Shown: piece by piece, positions 1 to 64,000 of the stretch
How positions within the stretch are numbered: the stretch's first letter is position 1
Layout: every line of letters begins with the position of its first letter
Origin: a phage
Assembly (NCBI GenBank): GCA_012646185.1
Contig: GCA_012646185.1_4706.1
Reading direction: 5' to 3' (one strand)
DNA: 64,000 bases
The notes under the pieces: model-generated
What the model saw: the letters and a program-made list of their open reading frames with translations, nothing else
What the model was told of the DNA's origin: nothing
Databases searched by the model: none
Made by a program: the position numbers and the translations under genes

Positions 1-1625
1 ACCACGACAAAGACGCTGACTCGCCGCATGAATTCGGTAAAGATGAAGTCACTATCGGATCGATGACCGCAACCGCGGACGACGCTCAGAGTAACTACTA
101 TCCGATTCTGGATGGTCTGGTAAGCTGGCGCGGTGAGGAAGGTAACAATATCGGTCTGCGTTTAGAAGCGCCGACCGCATTGAGCAGCAATCCGACCCGT
201 ACCGACATCATCGAACGCATCGGTGCATTCCTGTATCGCATTCAGTTCGTTGAACGTAAATCGGCACGTACCGCACCGACGGTCATCCGTACCATCAGCG
301 GTATGGAACAAGAAACGTTCGCGTTGCAGACAGGTGTTATCCATCCGGACGACGAGACTGATCTGTCCTTTGATAAAGTCGTTGTTGACGCCTACGAGTA
401 CAATGAAACGGGGAATACTCCGATCTTTGCACCGATGGATCAACTTCACATCTATCAGAAGAATATCGACGAACTGACCAAGCGTCTGTATGATGCTGAG
501 AAAGCGGAAGCAGGAAACCACCTGTTGACCGACGTGGAATTCGTTGAAGGTCAGATGAACATCCTTACCGGTGTTGACTACAACGGTATTCCGTATTACT
601 CGGTGGAAGTCCTGGATGCAGACGAAGGCGGCGTTATCTTTGATGGCGGCAGCACCTTCTACGCGATCGACGGTAGCGATGGCACCGTTGACTGGGATAC
701 CTTCGATGCGTTAGCGCAACAGCAGTTCGAATCGTTCGGCAACATGGGCGAAGATCTGGAAGACATGGCTTTCTATCCGTTCTCCATCGTGTATGACATT
801 GGTTACAAAGTCGACACGAAGAAAGCGATGGCAAACGTCTTGTCTCTGCGTCCGGATGTCATGATCATTGCGTCAACCCATACCTGGAAGGGTGTGGAAC
901 TGAATGTTGATGAAGAAAGCTCCATGGGTGCAATGCTGCGTAACTATTACCGCCTGCATCCAGAAAGCGTGCTTTACAATACCCCAGCTTGCCGTGCTGC
1001 GGTATTCATGCAATACGGTGAAAGCATCGAAGCGCCAAGCCTGGGTAAAGTTCCGTTGACGCTGGAAGTTGCGAATAAACTTGCAACTTACATGGGTGCT
1101 TCGGATGGTGTTATCCGTGGTACCCGCATCGATAACAACCCTGGTAACGTTGTCACAACGATGCGTAAAATCAACAAGACGTATCGTAACGCAACGGTCC
1201 GCGATCGTGATTGGGAAAACGGCTTGAACTATGTTCAGACCTACAACCGTAATTCCAACTTCTTCCCGGCTTGGGGCACGATCTACAATAACGACCGTTC
1301 GGTATGGCGTTCGTTGATCAACGTGATCATCGGTTGCGATCTAACTCGTGTCTGCTATCGTCTCTGGGCAGAAACCACCGGTACAACAGGAATGGATGAA
1401 ACCCTGTTCCTGAAACTGATGGGCGAACGCTTCCTGGAATACACCACGGGCCGTTACAACGACCACGTGACTGTTAAGGGACGTTTCTACCTGGATAAAG
1501 AAGACGGTTACAACGGCTTCAGCTATCACGGCGATATCAGCCTGATCGGCGATCCAGGCATGACCGTGGGTACGTTTACCATCACCGGGCTGCGTCGTAA
1601 CACCGAAGCAGCAGAAGCGGCGTAA
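1..1625 (+). CDS. virion structural protein, 5' end outside window; candidate tail sheath
   Basis: Frame is open from window start to stop at 1625; followed 15 bp later by a ~296-aa ORF with strong RBS, a sheath-tube-like arrangement. No motif confirmation. Confidence 0.3.
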   Translation, partial: HDKDADSPHEFGKDEVTIGSMTATADDAQSNYYPILDGLVSWRGEEGNNIGLRLEAPTALSSNPTRTDIIERIGAFLYRIQFVERKSARTAPTVIRTISGMEQETFALQTGVIHPDDETDLSFDKVVVDAYEYNETGNTPIFAPMDQLHIYQKNIDELTKRLYDAEKAEAGNHLLTDVEFVEGQMNILTGVDYNGIPYYSVEVLDADEGGVIFDGGSTFYAIDGSDGTVDWDTFDALAQQQFESFGNMGEDLEDMAFYPFSIVYDIGYKVDTKKAMANVLSLRPDVMIIASTHTWKGVELNVDEESSMGAMLRNYYRLHPESVLYNTPACRAAVFMQYGESIEAPSLGKVPLTLEVANKLATYMGASDGVIRGTRIDNNPGNVVTTMRKINKTYRNATVRDRDWENGLNYVQTYNRNSNFFPAWGTIYNNDRSVWRSLINVIIGCDLTRVCYRLWAETTGTTGMDETLFLKLMGERFLEYTTGRYNDHVTVKGRFYLDKEDGYNGFSYHGDISLIGDPGMTVGTFTITGLRRNTEAAEAA

Positions 1626-55334: not shown

Positions 55335-56228
55335 TTAATCGGCGGTGTTATAACCGAATACTGCTTTACCGTAGGTGTGAGTACCGTTAGCTAACGACAG
55401 CACCAGCACATGGTTGTACGTAGCGTTAACGCCCTTGTCAGTAGACTCGGTGGTAGCACCGTTATAGACAAAGGTAGCCGTTTGCAGATTGGCTTTCAGC
55501 TCGGTGATGATCTCATCACTGACACCTGTCTGCTCTTTGATCAGCGTAGTCAGGTTACCTGCCAGGCTTGCATCGATATTTACTTCGTTGCCAGTAATAG
55601 CTTGTAAACCTGCGGTGTAAGTACTGAAGTCTAACGGATAGGTTAACAGACGTGCTGACGTTTTGGTACCATCGCCATCATCAACGTAGGTTAAGTTACC
55701 CAGGTTGGTAACCTTGATGATGTTAGCCAGATCCAGCGTGGTGTTATAAACTTTAACTTGAACAGAGCCATACCACGCCAACGAATCTTCTTTGGCTTCC
55801 AGGGTGATCGTCTGGATACCATGCTGGTCGAAGGTAACCGGCGTAGCTAACGTTTCGGCTTTGATGTCTTTATCTTTATCCAGGAACTTCTCACCGGTCG
55901 GCGTGATCATACCGTAGCGTTGAGCTACAAGGTCAACCACATCACCGATGGTGGTGTCAGCAGTAACGTTAACACGTACAGCGATTTTCTGGAACCACTT
56001 AGCCAGATCCAGACGATGGTAGGTAACATCGCGGTTATTGAAGTAAGGTGTACCATCACCAGGGCTAAGCGTTAAAGTTGCTTCTGGAGCAGAAGCGCTT
56101 TTGGATTTAAGAACGTATTTAAGATCACTGTATTGGAAGCTGGCACCAGTGTCGGCGTTGAGCTGATTGATCTCATCAACGATAAGTTGCCAAGGTGTTT
56201 TTAAAGTAAGCGATACTTGAGTTGCCAT
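55335..56228 (-). CDS. hypothetical protein, likely abundant structural protein
   Basis: 297-aa ORF with GAGG RBS and strongly biased codon usage. Confidence 0.55.
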   Translation of the reverse strand: MATQVSLTLKTPWQLIVDEINQLNADTGASFQYSDLKYVLKSKSASAPEATLTLSPGDGTPYFNNRDVTYHRLDLAKWFQKIAVRVNVTADTTIGDVVDLVAQRYGMITPTGEKFLDKDKDIKAETLATPVTFDQHGIQTITLEAKEDSLAWYGSVQVKVYNTTLDLANIIKVTNLGNLTYVDDGDGTKTSARLLTYPLDFSTYTAGLQAITGNEVNIDASLAGNLTTLIKEQTGVSDEIITELKANLQTATFVYNGATTESTDKGVNATYNHVLVLSLANGTHTYGKAVFGYNTAD

Positions 56229-56369
56229 TTTCTACCTCTATGGTTGTTACATCACTCTCAAAAGATGTAACTGTTTACAGAAATTAATATATTTTATATT
56301 AACGTAAATAATATGGAGAACGACTCCGAATCTCCTTTTCGACCATCAAAAATCAGAGGACACATTATC

Positions 56370-56912
56370 ATGGCCTTAGACTTTAACAAAGCAGCGAAAT
56401 CCCTTCTGCTTGATCTTATCAACACCAAAGCAACCCGCCCACTGACTGAAGAAGAACTGCAGTTCGGTACTCCGGGAGCATCTTCCGAACATGAAAAGAA
56501 CACCGTTATTCAGCTGGATGCTGCAGTTGGTGCAGAAAACCTGCAGGGTAGTCAGCAGTTCTACTACGATCGTCTGGCTCTGTCCGAAGTTTTCGCTGAA
56601 GTAACCGGCGATGTTACTTTCGAACTGCCGCACGGTACCGACAGCATCCAGGCTTCTGAACTGGTAAGCAAGCTGGTCACCAAATTCGGCCTGGCTTCCC
56701 TGACCGGTGAAATCAAAGAAGAAACCTTCCAGCTGTCTGCAGGTACTGTTGCTCAGGTAACTCTGAACGCGATCGAGAACGGTCTGGTATATACCGGCAC
56801 TCTGCAGGTTGCCCTGACCTATGCAGCAGCACCGAAAGACCAACTGGCAACCGTTCTGGCGGATAACGTAGCTGATGGCTTCGTGAAACCGACCGTTAGC
56901 GTTGTTGGCTAA
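56370..56912 (+). CDS. hypothetical protein, likely abundant structural protein
   Basis: ATG at 56370 with AGAGGA RBS; strongly biased codon usage; divergent from 55335..56228. Confidence 0.55.
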   Translation: MALDFNKAAKSLLLDLINTKATRPLTEEELQFGTPGASSEHEKNTVIQLDAAVGAENLQGSQQFYYDRLALSEVFAEVTGDVTFELPHGTDSIQASELVSKLVTKFGLASLTGEIKEETFQLSAGTVAQVTLNAIENGLVYTGTLQVALTYAAAPKDQLATVLADNVADGFVKPTVSVVG

Positions 56913-57107
56913 TAAGCACATAGAGCAATAGTATGGGTTTTGTACAGCTCGGCTATTGCTCTTCTACAATTTGGTTGTAACAATCTGCGTGGTTGCACGC
57001 TTATCTTTCTCATTGAGCGCTTCGTATGAAGCGTGGTGTTGAAAGGGTTGTGGATCTCCTCAAGCGGCCAGGGACCCAGACCAACCTGAATAAACACGAA
57101 CACCTGT

Positions 57108-57146
57108 TAAGCCCCTCCTCATCCGTTATTGGGTGAGGAGGGGTCT
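57108..57146. terminator. hairpin, candidate bidirectional terminator
   Basis: cccctcctca ... gtgaggagggg between convergent genes; a second hairpin agagcaatag...ctattgctct lies at 56916-56960. Confidence 0.45.
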
Positions 57147-57206
57147 TATACGTCTTTATGCGTTCCGTTCGTTCTGGAGCGTTTTAGGACGGTTTACGGC
57201 AGGGTT

Positions 57207-57842
57207 TTATTCAACACTGAAACCGTTCAAACGAATAGCTTCATAACGCTTACGTTCACGTCGTTTACGCGCCTGCCAGCCGTAAATGAACTTCTCGTCT
57301 TTCTCACGACGTTCAGCTAATTCGATGTAATAGGTGCTCTGCATGTCCAGCATCGCGTCGATGAGATAATCCTTACCGGTTGCACCACGCTTAGAGATGT
57401 AAGCATCAAGAGCTGCCAGTGATTTGGGGCCCATTGCACCATCAGCATCAATATCTTTCCAGTAAGTTTGACGGTTATTCATGACGTTCAGATAACGCTG
57501 GAGGTTCTTAACCGCAACCGTTTTACCTGCATTGATACCCAGGTCAAAGAGACGGTCAGCTAAAAACACAGAACGTTTCATGACTTCGTCAAGTTTCATC
57601 TTATCCCAGAAGTGGGTCTTGTAGATAAAGAACGCCATTTCCGTGGTAAGGTTACGCATGTTACCGTCCCAGCCGAATTTCGTTTTCAGCGTGGTTTTGT
57701 ATTGATTGGCAAGCGCTTGCGTCACGCCGTGGTTCGTGATTCCGCCCGAGTCATCTGGATCGTCGACATAACCTGCCTCGATGCTGGTCTTGTCGCGAAT
57801 GATGAATTCGCAGGTGAAATCTTTTTCAGTAATCTTAGCCAT
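57207..57842 (-). CDS. endolysin, GH108-type muramidase with C-terminal peptidoglycan-binding domain
   Basis: ATG with GAGGAG RBS. N-terminal EAGYVDDPDDSGGITNHGVTQ matches the GH108 signature; C-terminal half resembles a PG_binding_3-type domain. Confidence 0.65.
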   Translation of the reverse strand: MAKITEKDFTCEFIIRDKTSIEAGYVDDPDDSGGITNHGVTQALANQYKTTLKTKFGWDGNMRNLTTEMAFFIYKTHFWDKMKLDEVMKRSVFLADRLFDLGINAGKTVAVKNLQRYLNVMNNRQTYWKDIDADGAMGPKSLAALDAYISKRGATGKDYLIDAMLDMQSTYYIELAERREKDEKFIYGWQARKRRERKRYEAIRLNGFSVE

Positions 57843-57968
57843 TAGAACTCCTCGTTGGAATAACGATTTAGAGGAACAGGAAGGGTCTAGAACGCGATAA
57901 ACGATTTAATCCAAGCAAACCCCAGACTAAACTTTTCGAAGCGTTAGAACGCGTTCTAGAGTGCAATA

Positions 57969-60017
57969 TCAAATACCCTTGGTTCCTTTCACGTGATGTG
58001 CGATTTCTTCAACCATTGCACGCAGAGCACGAAGCTGTTGGTCGTGTTCGTACCAACCACCTAACAGAACCCCGCTATACACCATGGTGTCAAGACTTAA
58101 CAGTCCTTTATCTGATACGTTGATCATTTCAGGGAACTGTTCTTGAACACGCTGTGCGATAACACCGATCTTCTCGACATCAGGATCGTAGTTGTGACGG
58201 AAACGGGCAAGCCCGCTGCGCGCCATTTCACGTAAACGTTCACTGAGAGATTCCGGATGATCTTTCAGATAACGGATGTCGTGTTTACTACGCTCATCCG
58301 AGCGAATGTAAGCGTTAGGAACATCGATATTGCTGTTGAAGTACAGCGCACTACCACCGCCTGCAGAGTTCCCCCAATAGAAGCGTGTGATCTCACCGCC
58401 GCCATTTTCCGTGATGATAACATGTTTACCTAAACGCGTACCACCATTACCATCAACGAAGACCAGTTTGTTTCCGCTGTAAGAACCCCAGAACAAGCGT
58501 GTATCGATGATGTGCGTCGCAGCGAGACGGGCGTTACGTGGTGTAGAATACACGGTGTTCACATCTTGCTGTGCATGCGCATCGGAAGCGATACCGTAGT
58601 TCTGTACGTTACCCAATCCTACCTGCGCTTTTGTAACAGCATGTGGGTTGTCTCGACGGTTAGCGTGAGCGTTAACCAGATCACCCGCTAATTTCTGAAT
58701 TGCCCAGTTGGTAGACTGTGGCGTCATGTAACGGTTCGTTGCAGAACCACCTTGCGCTTCAGCTTGGTTAGCGGTTGGATAGTTCTCAACACTTCCTAAC
58801 CCTACTTGTGCTTTAGACACTTGGTGTGGGTTATTCTTGTCAGCGATGTGTGCATTAAGCGGAACTAACGCAAAGGTCTCAATGGACGCTTTGGTTGTGT
58901 TCGGTGCCATTAATCGGTTAGCTGCAACACCGGCACGCGCTTCTTCTTCAGACGCCATTGGGTAGTCTTGCACATTCCCTAACCCAACCTGTGCTTTGGT
59001 CACCCTGTGTGGGTTGTTGTAATCGGCTTTATGCGCATTAAGTGGAATCAATGCGAACTGTTCGATCGCGGCAACGGTACGTAGCGGTGTCATGAAACGG
59101 TTGTTCGCTGTTCCGGCTTTCGCCTCATCATCCGAAGCGGTCGGGAAGTTATCAACGTTCCCAAGGTTAACCTGTGCTTTGGTGACGCTATGCGGGTTAT
59201 CCCGACGGTTAGCATGCGCGTCGACTAGATCGCCCGCCAGTTTAGCAATCGCCCATCCAACCGTTTGTGCGGTCATGTATCGGTCAGGTGCAGTACCGGC
59301 TTCTGCCTCCGCCTTGTTGGCGGTAGGATAGTTCTGTACGTTACCTAGTCCGACTTGGGCTTTTGTTACTTCGTGCGGGTTATCGGTACGGTTAGCATGC
59401 GCGTAATGCAGATCGGTCAGATCTTTATCCGCTGCTTGCATGTCTTTGCGTAGCTGATCGATTGCCGCCCAGAGACGGTTATCGGATGCGGCGTCACCGA
59501 TAAGTATTGCGGCTTTCAGTGAATAGATCGCTAAGCAAAGATGTTCGGTACCGTAGATAGCACTAACGTGGTGGATGTGTGGTTCAGGCGGATAGAGTTC
59601 CGGTTTGTTCTTGATGTCATCCCAGTTGATCGGACGATCGTCAAGTTTGAGTTCTTCGATAGCCTGATATAACGCGTCAATAAGACTTACGTAAACACCA
59701 CCGATGATACGATAGTCGTTAACTAATGTACCCTCGATATCATCGTTGATAATGGCGATGGCTGCACAGATTTCTTTACCCGCGTAAAGCGTTGCATCCT
59801 GATACAAGAAGATGGGTTTATAATCCACGCCTCGTACCAGTGTCTTACCGGTAAGCTTTTCAGTGATGACCAGACTTTCGGTGAAGAACGGTCCGCCATC
59901 GAGGGCGTAACATTTATTCTCGGTTCGTGGAACGGTATGCTCTTCACCAACGATGTGGTTGCTGGCGAGTGTACCGGTCCAGTCCTCGGGGTACTTCAGG
60001 GTAATTGGTGTCGACAT
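57969..60017 (-). CDS. tail fibre protein with tandem repeats and C-terminal intramolecular chaperone domain
   Basis: Five ~60-aa repeats each carrying HxxxxxNPHxVTKAQVGLGNVxNYP; C-terminal SDERSKHD...GGWYEHDQQLRAL resembles the autoproteolytic chaperone domain of phage fibres and endosialidases. Confidence 0.75.
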   Translation of the reverse strand: MSTPITLKYPEDWTGTLASNHIVGEEHTVPRTENKCYALDGGPFFTESLVITEKLTGKTLVRGVDYKPIFLYQDATLYAGKEICAAIAIINDDIEGTLVNDYRIIGGVYVSLIDALYQAIEELKLDDRPINWDDIKNKPELYPPEPHIHHVSAIYGTEHLCLAIYSLKAAILIGDAASDNRLWAAIDQLRKDMQAADKDLTDLHYAHANRTDNPHEVTKAQVGLGNVQNYPTANKAEAEAGTAPDRYMTAQTVGWAIAKLAGDLVDAHANRRDNPHSVTKAQVNLGNVDNFPTASDDEAKAGTANNRFMTPLRTVAAIEQFALIPLNAHKADYNNPHRVTKAQVGLGNVQDYPMASEEEARAGVAANRLMAPNTTKASIETFALVPLNAHIADKNNPHQVSKAQVGLGSVENYPTANQAEAQGGSATNRYMTPQSTNWAIQKLAGDLVNAHANRRDNPHAVTKAQVGLGNVQNYGIASDAHAQQDVNTVYSTPRNARLAATHIIDTRLFWGSYSGNKLVFVDGNGGTRLGKHVIITENGGGEITRFYWGNSAGGGSALYFNSNIDVPNAYIRSDERSKHDIRYLKDHPESLSERLREMARSGLARFRHNYDPDVEKIGVIAQRVQEQFPEMINVSDKGLLSLDTMVYSGVLLGGWYEHDQQLRALRAMVEEIAHHVKGTKGI

Positions 60018-60030
60018 AACCTGGAGGTCC

Positions 60031-62634
60031 TTATAACGTGACTGTACCTAATTTGGTTGTCTTATTGAGATTAATGACAGAGATCTGGGTATCGCTGGTC
60101 GTGATGGTGCCAATATTAACGCGCTGTCCTTTATCATCTTCTTGCTTGTAGATGGTTAACTCCAGTTCTAACTGGTCGCCATTAGGAACAACGGAAACGT
60201 ACCATGTTTTATTACCTGGTGAACTATTATAGTCTTTTAGGTTATAATGACCTTTAGGTAAGGTCATGACCTTACCGGCAAACAAGCAAGTGATGTCTTC
60301 GTTGATGTAGATATCGTAACCGGAAGCAGCAACGACCGTAGAAACCATGTAACGGCTTTTAACAGCGAGAGCTTTATATTCCGCAACGGAATTACCGACA
60401 GCACTAAAGACCTGACCACCATTACCCATCACCGTAGAGACTGCGGTATCAACATAACCGATTCCCCACACTGGATGCACGTTCCAGCGCCAGCCGCTTG
60501 TCTGTAGGTAAGCATACATACCTTCAAATGCGATGGTTGTCCAGTTCCCATCGTTTTGTCGCCCAGCTCGGAACTGGTAGGTGTTCTGGTTCCCTGCAGC
60601 CTGCCGGGAATACGGAACATGTCCCGCAACAAGCCACCCATCACTCACCTTCTTGTAAGCTAATGCACCCCAGGCAGCATACTGACTACCGATAGTTGTT
60701 GTATCGGCTTCCTCGACATAACCCAGCAGTTTGGTTACACCCGTCACCGTAATAGCACCTTTACGTGCGGATACGGTAACTTCCGCAGCGATTCGTCCAT
60801 GTACGCGCGTGCTGTTATTACAGCCAGCAACAAACAGAATACAGGGTGCGTTTGTACCATCTGGAGGTACGGCTAACGCATGCTGCCACTGACTTACCCC
60901 TGATAACTTAGATCCTGTATATGCGTTCCACACGAGCTGTCCGCCTGCTTGCAGGTTGGCTGCGGTTATGCTGACGGCTTCACCGGAAGGTGCGAGTTTG
61001 GTGGCGTCATATCCGATATTACCGGATAAGTTTGAATCGGTTAAATAAGACCCGCTAACTACCGTATTGTCGTCACTTAAATGTACGGTTAGGAAAGGTC
61101 GCGACAACTGACCTGCGCTAACCACCACGTTGTTGGAAGGTGGAAAACCGTAAACGTCTATACCCTCACCTCGATAACGATAGCTAAGGTTCCAATCGTA
61201 GGTCACCAAACGGGCTTCGAAATTACCTTGCCCGCCAGCCGTACGCGAGTTAACGAAAACCTTGTTTTTAGCAAAGAAACCCAGGTAACCATGGGACGCA
61301 AGTGCACCGACGATACGATCGTCAACGCTTTTCCAGTTTGAGTCGTACTGTATTCCACCAGTAGGACCGAGTTTGGCAAGTTCGTCAAACACGTTTCCAG
61401 AGAAACCTCTGATAGTGTACGATCGTGCGTAGGGGGCGGATAAGTTGTCGTTTTGAATCACAGCGACTTGACCACGTTCATCGATTTCAATATTTCCCGT
61501 ACTGTTACCCGAACCCCACTGCCAGAAACCGTCATTATACCCGCTTGTCCCCGCCGTCGTGTTGGAAGGTCCTACCCAGTCTATTCCGCTATCGGTTGAC
61601 ACGTACGTGGATTGTCCAGCACCTGGGTTCATGCTGTAACTGTTGTTGGTGGTTTCAAAATCCAGATAGAACTGATGTACCCCGTTCTTTTGCTGATTTT
61701 TGCGGTTGTTTGTCCACCATGACGAAGCAATCAGAATACGTGCTTTCGTGCCTTTGGTTGCTGCATGCAGACGAATCTGAGCACGCCAGACGATTTGACC
61801 GATCCCGTCAGAAGGGAAATCATTCGTAGTTATGCGGTTGCAGACAATCATCTCGGCACTGTTGCTTATCGCCGTTCCTTCTATCGTTCTACCGCTAATA
61901 TTCGTAAGCTGCGTAGCCGCTACGCTGCCACCGCTGGGACCGATGGAAGATTTAGTTACGGTATAAACATTTAAGTAGAGTTTATAACTGTTAGTGCCAG
62001 CAATAGCGATGTAGATTTTACCGTTAATTTCCCAACAGCAGATATGCGGTGACGTATCAACAAAGTTGGCAAGACTACCATCGAGATACATGGCGACGTG
62101 TTTGGATGCATCAAACGTTCCGTCTGTCAATGCGATAAACATTTTAGGGCTGCTACCGTCTTCAAAAGCAGCTTGACCTAACATGATACCGTTCTGGTGA
62201 CAGTATATCACCGTAGGAATACGATCGAGCGTTGCGGGCTCATAGCGACGGCTGGTTGGAATAACTTCAGTGATCTGTCCGTTTTGATTTGTTTTACAGA
62301 TAACGTAGTAAACCCCTTTCTTTACGCTGTTCGTTGCCGAACGCAGTAACACGATAGTACCGTCGGATTCACGACATACGCCGTAACGACGATAGTCGAC
62401 GGTTAAGGCGATAGCACCATCAGCGGAGCCTTCGATTGCCAGAGGAAAATAACTTTGGTCCCCAACCTGTTCGATATCGGTTACGCCAATATCGATGTAT
62501 TTTTCCATCTCAGTGTTGAACTCAGCGGTACTGTAGGCACCGAGATCGCTCGCGTTTAGTCCCGTTGGATTGTTGCGACTGGCGATACGCGTAGTAACGC
62601 TATTCACCAGCTCGCTGAACTTTTTCATTGCCAT
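60031..62634 (-). CDS. tail fibre or tailspike protein candidate
   Basis: 867-aa ORF with GAGGTG RBS located inside the fibre cluster; no catalytic motif identified. Confidence 0.45.
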   Translation of the reverse strand: MAMKKFSELVNSVTTRIASRNNPTGLNASDLGAYSTAEFNTEMEKYIDIGVTDIEQVGDQSYFPLAIEGSADGAIALTVDYRRYGVCRESDGTIVLLRSATNSVKKGVYYVICKTNQNGQITEVIPTSRRYEPATLDRIPTVIYCHQNGIMLGQAAFEDGSSPKMFIALTDGTFDASKHVAMYLDGSLANFVDTSPHICCWEINGKIYIAIAGTNSYKLYLNVYTVTKSSIGPSGGSVAATQLTNISGRTIEGTAISNSAEMIVCNRITTNDFPSDGIGQIVWRAQIRLHAATKGTKARILIASSWWTNNRKNQQKNGVHQFYLDFETTNNSYSMNPGAGQSTYVSTDSGIDWVGPSNTTAGTSGYNDGFWQWGSGNSTGNIEIDERGQVAVIQNDNLSAPYARSYTIRGFSGNVFDELAKLGPTGGIQYDSNWKSVDDRIVGALASHGYLGFFAKNKVFVNSRTAGGQGNFEARLVTYDWNLSYRYRGEGIDVYGFPPSNNVVVSAGQLSRPFLTVHLSDDNTVVSGSYLTDSNLSGNIGYDATKLAPSGEAVSITAANLQAGGQLVWNAYTGSKLSGVSQWQHALAVPPDGTNAPCILFVAGCNNSTRVHGRIAAEVTVSARKGAITVTGVTKLLGYVEEADTTTIGSQYAAWGALAYKKVSDGWLVAGHVPYSRQAAGNQNTYQFRAGRQNDGNWTTIAFEGMYAYLQTSGWRWNVHPVWGIGYVDTAVSTVMGNGGQVFSAVGNSVAEYKALAVKSRYMVSTVVAASGYDIYINEDITCLFAGKVMTLPKGHYNLKDYNSSPGNKTWYVSVVPNGDQLELELTIYKQEDDKGQRVNIGTITTSDTQISVINLNKTTKLGTVTL

Positions 62635-62646
62635 TATTCACCTCGA

Positions 62647-63132
62647 TTAAATAGGCGAGTCAGGAAGCTGTCCGTCGTCGATTTCAACGGTGCCGATCTT
62701 ACGTGTTGCCGCGAGGTGCACGGTACCCTGAATTTTGTTCCATGTCCCGATACGCATCACGTTTCTGTAATTACTGTTGCTATCTGTTAACGTGTAGGCG
62801 AAACCGCTATCGGTGACAGCAAGATAAACCCAGCCAACAGATTCACTTACACCAGACACATCCAACGTCGTTGCAGGAACAACACCCTCTTTGGTATTGT
62901 ATTCGGCAACACCTTCCGACAAACTTATTCTTCCGTTGTTGTAAGAACCAGACGGTACGATACGATCGCGACTGAAAAAAAGAAAGGGAAGGTAACGCTG
63001 GGTAACAAGCGGTGCAAGTTTAGGAGCCACTTCGGTCTTAACGTAGACATTTGTTTGTGCTGGCGTTACCTCGTGAGGGTTCTTTTGGGTGAGATACGCT
63101 CCCCATTCAGAAAGCAATGTTGATAGCTTCAT
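62647..63132 (-). CDS. small tail-fibre-related protein
   Basis: N-terminal KNPHEVTPAQTNVY shares the NPH-VT-AQ motif of the fibre repeats. Confidence 0.45.
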   Translation of the reverse strand: MKLSTLLSEWGAYLTQKNPHEVTPAQTNVYVKTEVAPKLAPLVTQRYLPFLFFSRDRIVPSGSYNNGRISLSEGVAEYNTKEGVVPATTLDVSGVSESVGWVYLAVTDSGFAYTLTDSNSNYRNVMRIGTWNKIQGTVHLAATRKIGTVEIDDGQLPDSPI

Positions 63133-63136
63133 GCGG

Positions 63137-63646
63137 TTACCCCATGTAACGTTTTTGGCCGAGGATGAAGACTTTGTTAAATACCACCGAAGTGATTCCT
63201 GTTGCGTTACAGCTCACCTGCCCGACGCGAATTGCTGTTGACGTATCGACCCCAGCACTACTCTGCCAGATCCAATCGATCGATCCGTCTTTCTGACGAA
63301 TGAAAAGATAACCGGTTTTGTTCGCCCAGTCGGAAGTAAGTTTTTTGATGTCTAGCGTTCCTTTCGCCAGAATATAGTCGGTACCGGCGATCATGACGGG
63401 TATTTCAGGATACGAGATTACCGTACCGCTGGCGGTAACGTTGCTGATGCGATCACTACGAATATCGGTACAGTCACCGAAATACGCTACGGGGAGTATC
63501 CCCTTAGGGAGCTTTTTGCCGATTCTCGTATCGATCGTGTTTTTATCGGGTGCGTCGATTTGCGCTGCAGTGACTTGGTTAGGGTTATCCTTCCTTGCGT
63601 ACCATGCCGTCATGCGAGCACCCAATTCACTCATTTTTGTGCCCAT
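63137..63646 (-). CDS. small tail-fibre-related protein
   Basis: Start assigned to ATG at 63646 (track start 63652 is GTG); N-terminal KDNPNQVTAAQ motif. Confidence 0.45.
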   Translation of the reverse strand: MGTKMSELGARMTAWYARKDNPNQVTAAQIDAPDKNTIDTRIGKKLPKGILPVAYFGDCTDIRSDRISNVTASGTVISYPEIPVMIAGTDYILAKGTLDIKKLTSDWANKTGYLFIRQKDGSIDWIWQSSAGVDTSTAIRVGQVSCNATGITSVVFNKVFILGQKRYMG

Positions 63647-63680
63647 TTTCACATCCTATCGAAAAATAAAAAGAAGGAAA

Positions 63681-63698
63681 GGTGGGTAGAACCCACCC
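63681..63698 (-). terminator. intrinsic terminator hairpin
   Basis: ggtgggt agaa cccacc followed by a long U-run on the minus strand, directly after the stop at 63704. Confidence 0.6.
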
Positions 63699-63703
63699 AT
63701 CCG

Positions 63704-64000
63704 TTATAACGTTTCGAAGTCGGTTGCTTTGATAACCGCGTTGAAGTTGGCAAGGAATTCCTTAAGCAATGCTTGGAAGACATCACGAAACGCTGTGTTC
63801 GTCTGCAAGCTGGTTAAATAATCGTTCTTAAGGTAATCGCTCAGCTTACCGATCTTCTGCATCTTCTCGCCGTCTTGGTTCTCTCCAGGTTCTTGGCTGT
63901 TGATGTTAACCCATTTGATCCCTTCGAGATCGCCATCGGCAAGGAAGTTAGCGGGCGTCTCATCGTCGTTCAGGATTTTAATCGTGTCGCTGGATTCAAT
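63704..64000 (-). CDS. hypothetical protein, 3' end only (start outside window)
   Basis: Minus-strand frame open from the window edge to TAA at 63704-63706; not in the ORF track because it lacks a start in the window. Confidence 0.5.
   Translation of the reverse strand: MESSDTIKILNDDETPANFLADGDLEGIKWVNINSQEPGENQDGEKMQKIGKLSDYLKNDYLTSLQTNTAFRDVFQALLKEFLANFNAVIKATDFETL

Follow-up and report, generated by a model that had tools for sequence, protein, structure and literature searches.

We analysed a 64,000-nucleotide stretch of phage DNA (assembly GCA_012646185.1, contig GCA_012646185.1_4706.1; hereafter the window) and in particular a cluster of tail-fibre genes at positions 57969-63652, to which an earlier note, made from the letters alone, had drawn attention. 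Our best explanation, which as a whole we give a probability of about 0.72, is that the gene block is the baseplate-fibre and host-recognition module of a Goslar-like chimallivirus. Positions 57000-64000 are 93.6% identical in nucleotide sequence, over their full length, to Escherichia phage vB_EcoM_Goslar (NC_048170), a nucleus-forming jumbo phage of the Chimalliviridae. The block encodes a 682-aa fibre with a C-terminal Peptidase_S74 (S74) domain, the counterpart of Goslar gp25, and three proteins of 171, 161 and 867 aa, the counterparts of gp28, gp27 and gp26 (here the trio). What the motif shared by these proteins identifies is not a pair of alternative tips but a paralogue family of virion proteins with three members. 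Modular host-recognition clusters are a known kind of phage system, and the reading of the fibre and its S74 domain is that of a textbook system already annotated in Goslar; what is new, as a modest lead, is the adaptor made of a single shaft unit and the equimolar trio.

Anchor, shaft and tip of the fibre

From its N-terminus on, the 682-aa fibre has an anchor domain and a helical neck; a shaft of five 61-aa repeats follows, then a short variable tip and finally the S74 domain. In BLASTP it matches gp131, gp133, gp134 and gp135 of phiKZ (E = 2.7e-31, 6e-21, 1.3e-23 and 5.3e-31 respectively) over its first ∼330 residues, and the AlphaFold2 (AF2) model reaches pLDDT values of 76-91 over residues 11-100. 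It thus carries the anchor that characterizes the phiKZ gp131-like family of baseplate fibres. As to the virion, the evidence is by proxy: the 99.6% identical Goslar gp25, labelled 'Tail fiber' in the virion data, was found in purified virions (44 peptides, 59% coverage). Codon changes between the window fibre and gp25 are 51 synonymous and three non-synonymous. Goslar gp29 has the same anchor domain and six NPH repeats but no S74 domain.

Five tandem repeats of ∼60 aa had been proposed in the earlier note, and they are borne out. NPH recurs at residues 213, 274, 335, 396 and 457, an exact period of 61 aa, and a hidden Markov model (HMM) built from the five fibre repeats and the six of gp29 finds five units in the fibre, each with an i-Evalue of 1e-28 to 1e-33, far beyond chance. 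Each unit is a helix followed by NPHxVTKAQVGLGNV; in the AF2 monomer model the helix has ∼20 residues and the NPH-VTKAQVGLGNV segment is a loop. We take the shaft repeats to be old and maintained at the protein level, because the 183-nt units are only 64-74% alike as DNA and Tandem Repeats Finder called no tandem arrays in the region, whereas the protein period is exact. A weak HMM match at window positions 3-1622 (plus strand) was dismissed: its sequence is DSPHEFGKDEV and contains no NPH unit. Compared with PDB sequences, the repeat profile gave only one resemblance, at E = 9, of its A-[ST]-x-x-E-A-x-x-G...TP half to the repeats of T4 gp34, which is a lead only. A literature search for the motif string returned no paper.

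The fibre family has more than 1849 homologues, mostly on contigs of 200-280 kb. The anchor and repeats are conserved among them and the C-termini vary; S74 is present in 18 of the best 120 (∼15%). Fibres of the Felix O1 type, of the SPbeta YomR type and of other types carry the repeat too (441 phage records). Two metagenomic gp131-family fibres (P0040 and P0041) carry a shorter repeat of ∼41 aa, NPHxVTxAQLNVYxKEE..., which the N-terminus of the 161-aa protein (NPHEVTPAQTNVYVKTEV) resembles more than it does the 61-aa type. Every shaft unit has two invariant His eight residues apart (H-x5-NPH), the first of which is missing in the trio proteins. In a trimer the chains would bring six His together in each unit, which would suffice for metal binding on the axis, as at the HxH iron sites of T4 gp37.

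The tip is glycine-rich, 55 aa long, and aligns with the tip of S16 gp37; the closest annotated relatives of tip and S74 domain together are the ends of T-even gp37 proteins (∼30% identity). The fibre of a Goslar-like locus, L007, is 95.6% identical to that of the window overall, with 74% over residues 501-550 and 94-100% elsewhere. Within Goslar-like phages, residues 501-550, just before the predicted cut, are the fibre's only variable patch.

The S74 domain and its predicted cleavage

That the C-terminal domain starting with SDERSKHD is an intramolecular chaperone, as the earlier note held, is supported by the profile search it had proposed. Pfam Peptidase_S74 (PF13884) matches residues 573-631 (model positions 1-56 of 58) with 26.0 bits, above the gathering cut-off of 22 (E = 1.1e-5), and SDERSKHD begins at residue 573, the start of this match. 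The Ser573/Lys578 dyad (S-x4-K) is intact and invariant in all 13 aligned S74-type homologues, which also keep the x-S-D-x-[RK]-x-K pattern and the G-x-IAQ motif; it aligns with SSDRRIK of S16 gp37 and with the MyRF site. The family profile matches the solved S16 gp37 (6f45, E = 1.3e-5) and the MyRF ICA domain (7dc3, E = 0.019). Likeness to solved chaperone domains (3GW6, 4UW8, 6F45 were considered) was seen in sequence profiles only, as Foldseek with the low-confidence model gave no match at E ≤ 0.001. The domain makes up the last 110 residues, and the AF2 monomer model places a helix at 644-679 (pLDDT 67-87), which could form a trimeric coiled coil.

In the S74 family the cut lies N-terminal to the catalytic Ser. 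MyRF is cut at P586|S587, and its S587 and K592 are equivalent to endoNF S911 and K916; both residues are indispensable. Because the site is homologous to those of MyRF and endoNF, we place the predicted cleavage between Arg572 and Ser573: the mature fibre would very probably end in Arg572, and Ser573 would start the released 110-aa piece. This slightly corrects the earlier expectation of a fibre 'truncated at the Ser preceding DERSK': the Ser itself is predicted to leave with the chaperone. Computed masses are 74.8 kDa for the uncleaved protein, 62.1 kDa for the predicted mature fibre and 12.7 kDa for the released piece. We propose that the S74 domain aids folding and register of the three tip chains, then cuts between Arg572 and Ser573 and departs, which would leave the 62-kDa mature fibre.

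A domain that stays uncleaved as a permanent C-terminal knob seems improbable to us. It would be in keeping with the modest Pfam score, and cleavage itself is deduced from homology, but the catalytic Ser and Lys are both there and do not vary within the family, and every characterized homologue with the dyad self-cleaves. Four gp25 peptides bear on cleavage, HNYDPDVEK, IGVIAQR, VQEQFPEMINVSDK and GLLSLDTMVYSGVLLGGWYEHDQQLR, the first three lying within residues 573-682. The stored part of the Goslar virion peptide list, which holds the peptides starting with A to ELK, contains neither of the two chaperone-region peptides that could be checked in it.

The domain resembles known S74/ICA domains (K1F endoNF, T5 pb1, S16 and T2 gp37, MyRF) in its C-terminal position, in Ser and Lys five apart at the domain start, in the G-x-IAQ motif and the long C-terminal helix, and in its sequence match to 6f45 and 7dc3. 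The window fibre differs from known S74 fibres in that its 55-aa tip sits on a shaft rich in α-helix, not on a long triple β-helix.

Three paralogues that share one shaft-repeat unit

The motif stands at residue 23 of the 171-aa protein (NPNQVTAAQ), at residue 18 of the 161-aa protein (NPHEVTPAQ) and, in degenerate form, at residue 22 of the 867-aa protein (NPTGLNASDL). The earlier note had recognized the motif in two small proteins and placed them downstream of the fibre. The shared motif is real; its carriers number three, and on the minus strand they lie upstream of the fibre in transcription. When the 468 stop-to-stop open reading frames (ORFs) of the window were searched with the repeat HMM, the 171- and 161-aa proteins were the next-best after the fibre (E = 0.0016 and 0.017). 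In hhalign, the profile built from the trio N-termini and that of the repeat align with 93.7% probability (E = 1.9e-7). When the 161-aa protein was used in an exhaustive HMMER search, three orthologues only came up and then multi-repeat fibres, matched via residues 13-53 (E = 3.6e-12, nine stretches). Because of these three results we regard the trio motif as homologous to the shaft repeat and not as a chance likeness. In a search of annotated phages with the 161-aa protein, Goslar alone was found.

The profiles further show that the three proteins are paralogues with an N-terminal helix-NPx module of ∼55 aa, corresponding to one shaft-repeat unit. The 161- and 171-aa families align over 121 columns (hhalign 96.9%, E = 1.6e-10), and the 171- and 867-aa families at both ends, residues 6-60 with 5-59 (E = 1.4e-6) and 84-167 with 781-865 (E = 5.7e-7). 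The 867-aa protein has a β-propeller-like insert of ∼700 aa between N- and C-terminal modules like those of the 171-aa protein. In its NPx motif, N22, P23, G25, L26, A28 and D30 are invariant in 18 homologues, down to 35% identity. Invariant columns make up 46% of residues 1-74, 12% of 75-780 and 26% of 781-867, so that the N-terminus is the most conserved segment of the protein. For the propeller we considered the glycan-binding or -cleaving families GH43, GH130, sialidase and fucose lectin, to which the matches were only generic. None of the trio has a gp131-like anchor domain; their match to the phiKZ paralogues runs only through the NPx segment of ∼25-40 residues.

Two further roles were considered and rejected. 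The small proteins do not match assembly chaperones (Phage_tail_APC / Caudo_TAP) in Pfam, PHROG or NCBIfam, and gp27 and gp28 are in virions; scans of Pfam and PHROG with the trio gave no match to GP38, the profile to be expected of a T-even gp38-type tip adhesin.

Abundance in the virion

All three Goslar counterparts of the trio are virion proteins (Goslar Table S4). When label-free quantification (LFQ) areas are divided by mass, gp25 and gp29 reach 9.26 and 8.04 and the lysin gp24 8.16, while gp28, gp27 and gp26 lie at 1.52, 1.47 and 1.37. The trio proteins are therefore equimolar with each other at ∼1/6 of the level of the two fibres. On the same scale, proteins of known copy number give 0.37-1.78 (6 copies), 0.89-2.16 (12 copies), 5.1 (24 copies) and 5.9-19 (48-60 copies). 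Calibrated in this way, gp25 and gp29 are therefore estimated to be equimolar at roughly 36-72 copies and the trio at roughly 6-12 copies. A fixed accessory complex accounts for the equimolar level at ∼1/6 no worse than interchangeable alternatives do. The earlier suggestion of modular or alternative receptor-binding proteins (RBPs) survives in part: the proteins are in virions and those of 161 and 867 aa have swapped centres (see below), but there are three paralogues rather than two, encoded upstream, and they are equimolar at ∼1/6 of the fibre level.

Module exchange among relatives

The gp26 homologue of L007 is 90-96% identical to the window protein over residues 1-100, 94-100% over 801-867 and 44-66% in the centre; in the gp27 homologue the ends are 100% identical and the centre 68-70%. 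Comparison of the window with Goslar gp26 and gp27 gives the same pattern of conserved ends and divergent centres. The central cassettes of the 161- and 867-aa proteins are thus swapped between relatives.

In two metagenomic relatives, L002 and L004, the gp26 homologue is 44% and 35% identical, respectively, and the lysin again follows the trio. Their gp25-type fibre, with 627 aa and six repeats, is encoded upstream of the trio; its tip is unrelated, S74 is missing, and a 197-aa Phage_tail_APC / phrog_136 assembly protein comes after it. This shows tip and chaperone to be exchanged as a unit. The orthologous fibres of L002 and L004 use the separate-chaperone solution of the Tfa / Phage_tail_APC systems (Mu, P2, lambda-type), whereas the window phage uses the intramolecular S74 solution and has no Tfa-like gene in 57-64 kb. 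In the same two relatives the gp29-type fibre (L002 2038-4434, L004 1395-3791) ends in an Invasin_D3 / Big_1 Ig-like domain that is missing in Goslar gp29, another tip exchange on the same shaft.

Comparison with phiKZ and proposed roles

The phiKZ atlas places gp131 paralogues at twelve peripheral-baseplate fibre sites. Every site contains a six-helix bundle and six N-domains of the gp131 type; next to a gp131 trimer stand gp133, gp134 and gp135, in a single copy each. The phiKZ gp131-gp135 cluster and the present one are alike in the homologous anchor and first NPH repeats and in having several paralogues side by side, and in Goslar and Goslar-like loci the cluster adjoins a gp130-like gene, as in phiKZ. 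They differ in that the phiKZ paralogues all keep the anchor and have one or two repeats, whereas the Goslar type has two long fibres (five to six repeats) and three anchor-less proteins. The β-propeller is on gp131 itself in phiKZ and on the anchor-less 867-aa protein in the window phage. A stand-alone protein with a single NPH repeat exists in phiKZ as well: gp132 (L005 5811-6143, 110 aa, annotated as structural), in which the helix-NPx segment is similar to the start of the 867-aa protein (E = 1e-4). Possibly gp132 corresponds to the adaptor module of the trio.

We propose that the fibre and its paralogue gp29 would sit together at peripheral-baseplate fibre sites, like the six-domain site of phiKZ, and that the N-terminal module of the trio oligomerizes or docks. 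The trio would then display exchangeable central domains that adapt host recognition, one of them a β-propeller like that of a glycan enzyme or lectin. On K-12 the receptor of Goslar is the outer core of lipopolysaccharide (LPS).

How the trio proteins are arranged is the part of this scheme for which several readings compete. They may be independent homotrimeric RBPs that compete for, or each occupy, the same type of docking site through the shared N-terminal adaptor; we hold this to be quite possible, if short of even odds. In branched multi-RBP systems such as the CBA120 tailspikes and G7C gp63.1/gp66, the RBPs are encoded together and have a conserved N-terminal attachment module and variable distal parts. 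A conserved N-terminus with a variable remainder is the classic layout of exchangeable RBPs; the swapped central cassettes agree with it, and the NPx module derives from a repeat of trimeric fibres. However, with six trimers of each protein on a sixfold baseplate, copy numbers so low and equal would hardly be expected, and the conserved C-termini are unusual for stand-alone RBPs. The trio also differs from the CBA120 and G7C proteins in that its adaptor is the phage's own shaft-repeat unit rather than a T4 gp10-like domain, and in that its C-termini are conserved as well.

Tentatively, the gp26, gp27 and gp28 types may instead form one 1:1:1 heterotrimer, in which three helices and the NPx knot imitate a shaft unit, with one or two complexes per baseplate sextant. 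The near-equal LFQ/mass values, within the range of 6-12 copies (0.37-2.16), are what such a complex would give. The three genes are consecutive and paralogous, encode homologous N-termini and are kept as a unit in all relatives seen, and the phiKZ sites with single gp133, gp134 and gp135 beside the gp131 trimer offer a precedent. On the other hand, the LFQ scatter is also compatible with 18 copies, that is, six homotrimers of each, and the three N-termini are only 22-47% identical. We speculate, with considerable doubt, that the trio is an asymmetric, pseudo-threefold 1:1:1 'hetero-fibre' with three distal domains, including the swappable propeller, at 6 or 12 copies per baseplate, its assembly being nucleated by the single shaft-repeat unit that each chain contributes, and that host range among Goslar-like chimalliviruses would vary mainly through this complex, the S74 fibre being near-invariant.

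It is unlikely that one or more trio proteins cap the fibre tip after release of the chaperone, as gp38 does on gp37 in S16- and T2-type phages. The similarity of tip and S74 domain to T-even gp37 ends, that of S16 included, brings this to mind, and one cap per trimer would give a sub-stoichiometric ratio; yet the ratio observed is ∼6:1, not 3:1, and no trio protein has a GP38 match in Pfam. Because L002 and L004 keep the trio (33-44% identity, motif intact) despite an unrelated fibre tip and a separate chaperone, the tip is unlikely to be the conserved partner of the trio. Finally, a mere recombination or linker cassette for DNA-level shuffling, with no structural role in the small proteins, would suit the mosaic nature of fibre genes and the position of the motif at module boundaries, but is highly improbable, as the motif sites share no repeat at the DNA level (a chance-like 21-nt pair elsewhere is all that matches between genes) and the motif is kept at the protein level down to 33-36% identity, within the most conserved segment of gp26.

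Several points weigh against the interpretation of the block as a baseplate-fibre and host-recognition module in the form given here. The placement of the fibre at peripheral-baseplate sites is carried over from phiKZ, tail fibres being unresolved in the Goslar electron cryo-microscopy (cryo-EM) map. The virion data are from Goslar, a proxy for the window phage, and where the copy number of a protein is known, the LFQ estimates spread 2-4-fold. AF2 modelled the fibre as a monomer and with low confidence (pLDDT 60.4). No Foldseek match to the whole model reached E ≤ 0.001; the closest, to a baseplate chain of a Klebsiella phage (9f4b, E = 6.6e-3), was not used. A profile search against phage fibre-repeat models, also suggested in the earlier note, came back empty: the 61-aa repeat has no model in Pfam or NCBIfam, and sequence searches gave no solved homologue. 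The propeller matches of the 867-aa protein are generic (5-10% identity), and no catalytic residues were identified in its propeller. Autocleavage of the fibre is something we infer; the Goslar peptides seen in the stored part of the list, none of two expected in the chaperone region and seven of 11 in the mature region, do not differ significantly and are weakly suggestive, and Arg572 is itself a tryptic site.

In the recent cryo-EM studies of chimalliviruses (Goslar, phiKZ) the fibres and the peripheral baseplate were largely left unassigned, and no Goslar protein has been linked to the LPS-core receptor. The present analysis offers a parts list: two equimolar anchor-bearing fibres, one of them predicted to be matured by S74, and a conserved low-copy trio that carries one shaft unit and the most exchangeable sequence. 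For host-range engineering and structural work, it singles out as targets the dyad Ser573/Lys578, the first 55 residues of the trio proteins and, in the 867- and 161-aa proteins, the central cassettes.

Gene order and neighbouring features

The four ORFs from 57969 to 63652 were recovered at the coordinates given earlier, all on the minus strand (Table 1). Transcription runs from the gp29 homologue through the 171-, 161-, 867- and 682-aa genes to the lysin; the gaps among the four genes are 4 to 13 nt, that before the lysin 126 nt. Goslar gp24-gp29 are the same genes in the same order, the window alleles of gp26 and gp27 differing in that their central segments are replaced. In the Goslar record, gp25 carries a Peptidase_S74 note (RefSeq) and gp26-gp28 are 'hypothetical'.

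Table 1. Features of the fibre gene block in the window, in order of transcription.
Feature	Position	Strand	Remarks
Second fibre, C-terminal 98 codons	63705..64000	-	Goslar gp29 homologue; runs off window end; translation matches gp29 C-terminus
Terminator-like hairpin (putative)	63680..63698	-	Consensus scan only; between gp29 homologue and trio gene 1
Trio protein 1, 171 aa as listed, probably 169 aa	63137..63652	-	Goslar gp28 homologue, 96.5% identical
Motif NPNQVTAAQI, trio protein 1	63557..63586	-	
Trio protein 2, 161 aa	62647..63132	-	Goslar gp27 homologue, 82% identical
Motif NPHEVTPAQT, trio protein 2	63052..63081	-	
Trio protein 3, 867 aa	60031..62634	-	Goslar gp26 homologue, 93% identical
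Degenerate motif NPTGLNASDL, trio protein 3	62542..62571	-	
Tail fibre, 682 aa	57969..60017	-	Goslar gp25 homologue, 99.6% identical; PHROG virion, tail and fibre families
Fibre residues 1-155, gp131-like baseplate anchor domain	59553..60017	-	BLASTP to phiKZ paralogues
Fibre residues 201-517, five 61-aa shaft repeats	58467..59417	-	Repeat HMM
Fibre residues 518-572, glycine-rich distal tip	58302..58466	-	Predicted mature C-terminus
Fibre residues 573-682, Peptidase_S74 intramolecular chaperone	57972..58301	-	Pfam, dyad, profile matches
Ser573 codon	58299-58301	-	
Lys578 codon	58284-58286	-	
GH108 + PG_binding_3 lysin, last gene of block	57207..57842	-	Goslar gp24 homologue; Pfam E = 1.7e-19 and 1.5e-18

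The mechanical start of the 171-aa ORF is a GTG at 63652; an alternative ATG at 63646 has AGGA 7 nt upstream. Because of this AGGA and because all homologues are 169 aa long, the true product is probably the 169-aa protein starting at the ATG. Between the stop of the gp29 homologue and this gene lies the putative hairpin, GGGTGGGTTCTACCCACCT, with a T-rich tail after it. That the trio is ∼sixfold less abundant might be due in part to this hairpin; alone it would be insufficient for the abundance pattern, because the fibre further downstream is abundant. Rfam and tRNA scans of 54-64 kb found no RNA families or tRNAs, and a scan for sigma-70 promoters gave fewer than the shuffled expectation, the sigma-70 model not being applicable to chimallivirus promoters.

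Next to the block lie two genes for DUF7941 proteins, the homologues of Goslar gp22 and gp23 (55335-56228, minus strand, and 56313-56912, plus strand). According to the Goslar study, DUF7941 proteins form filaments at very high copy number (the 'DUF7941 fibre cloud') and were proposed to aid host recognition. The GH108 + PG_binding_3 'endolysin' at the end of the block is as abundant in Goslar virions as the fibres, at 51, 76 or 120 copies by three normalizations; it may be a virion-associated lysin, instead of or besides a late endolysin.

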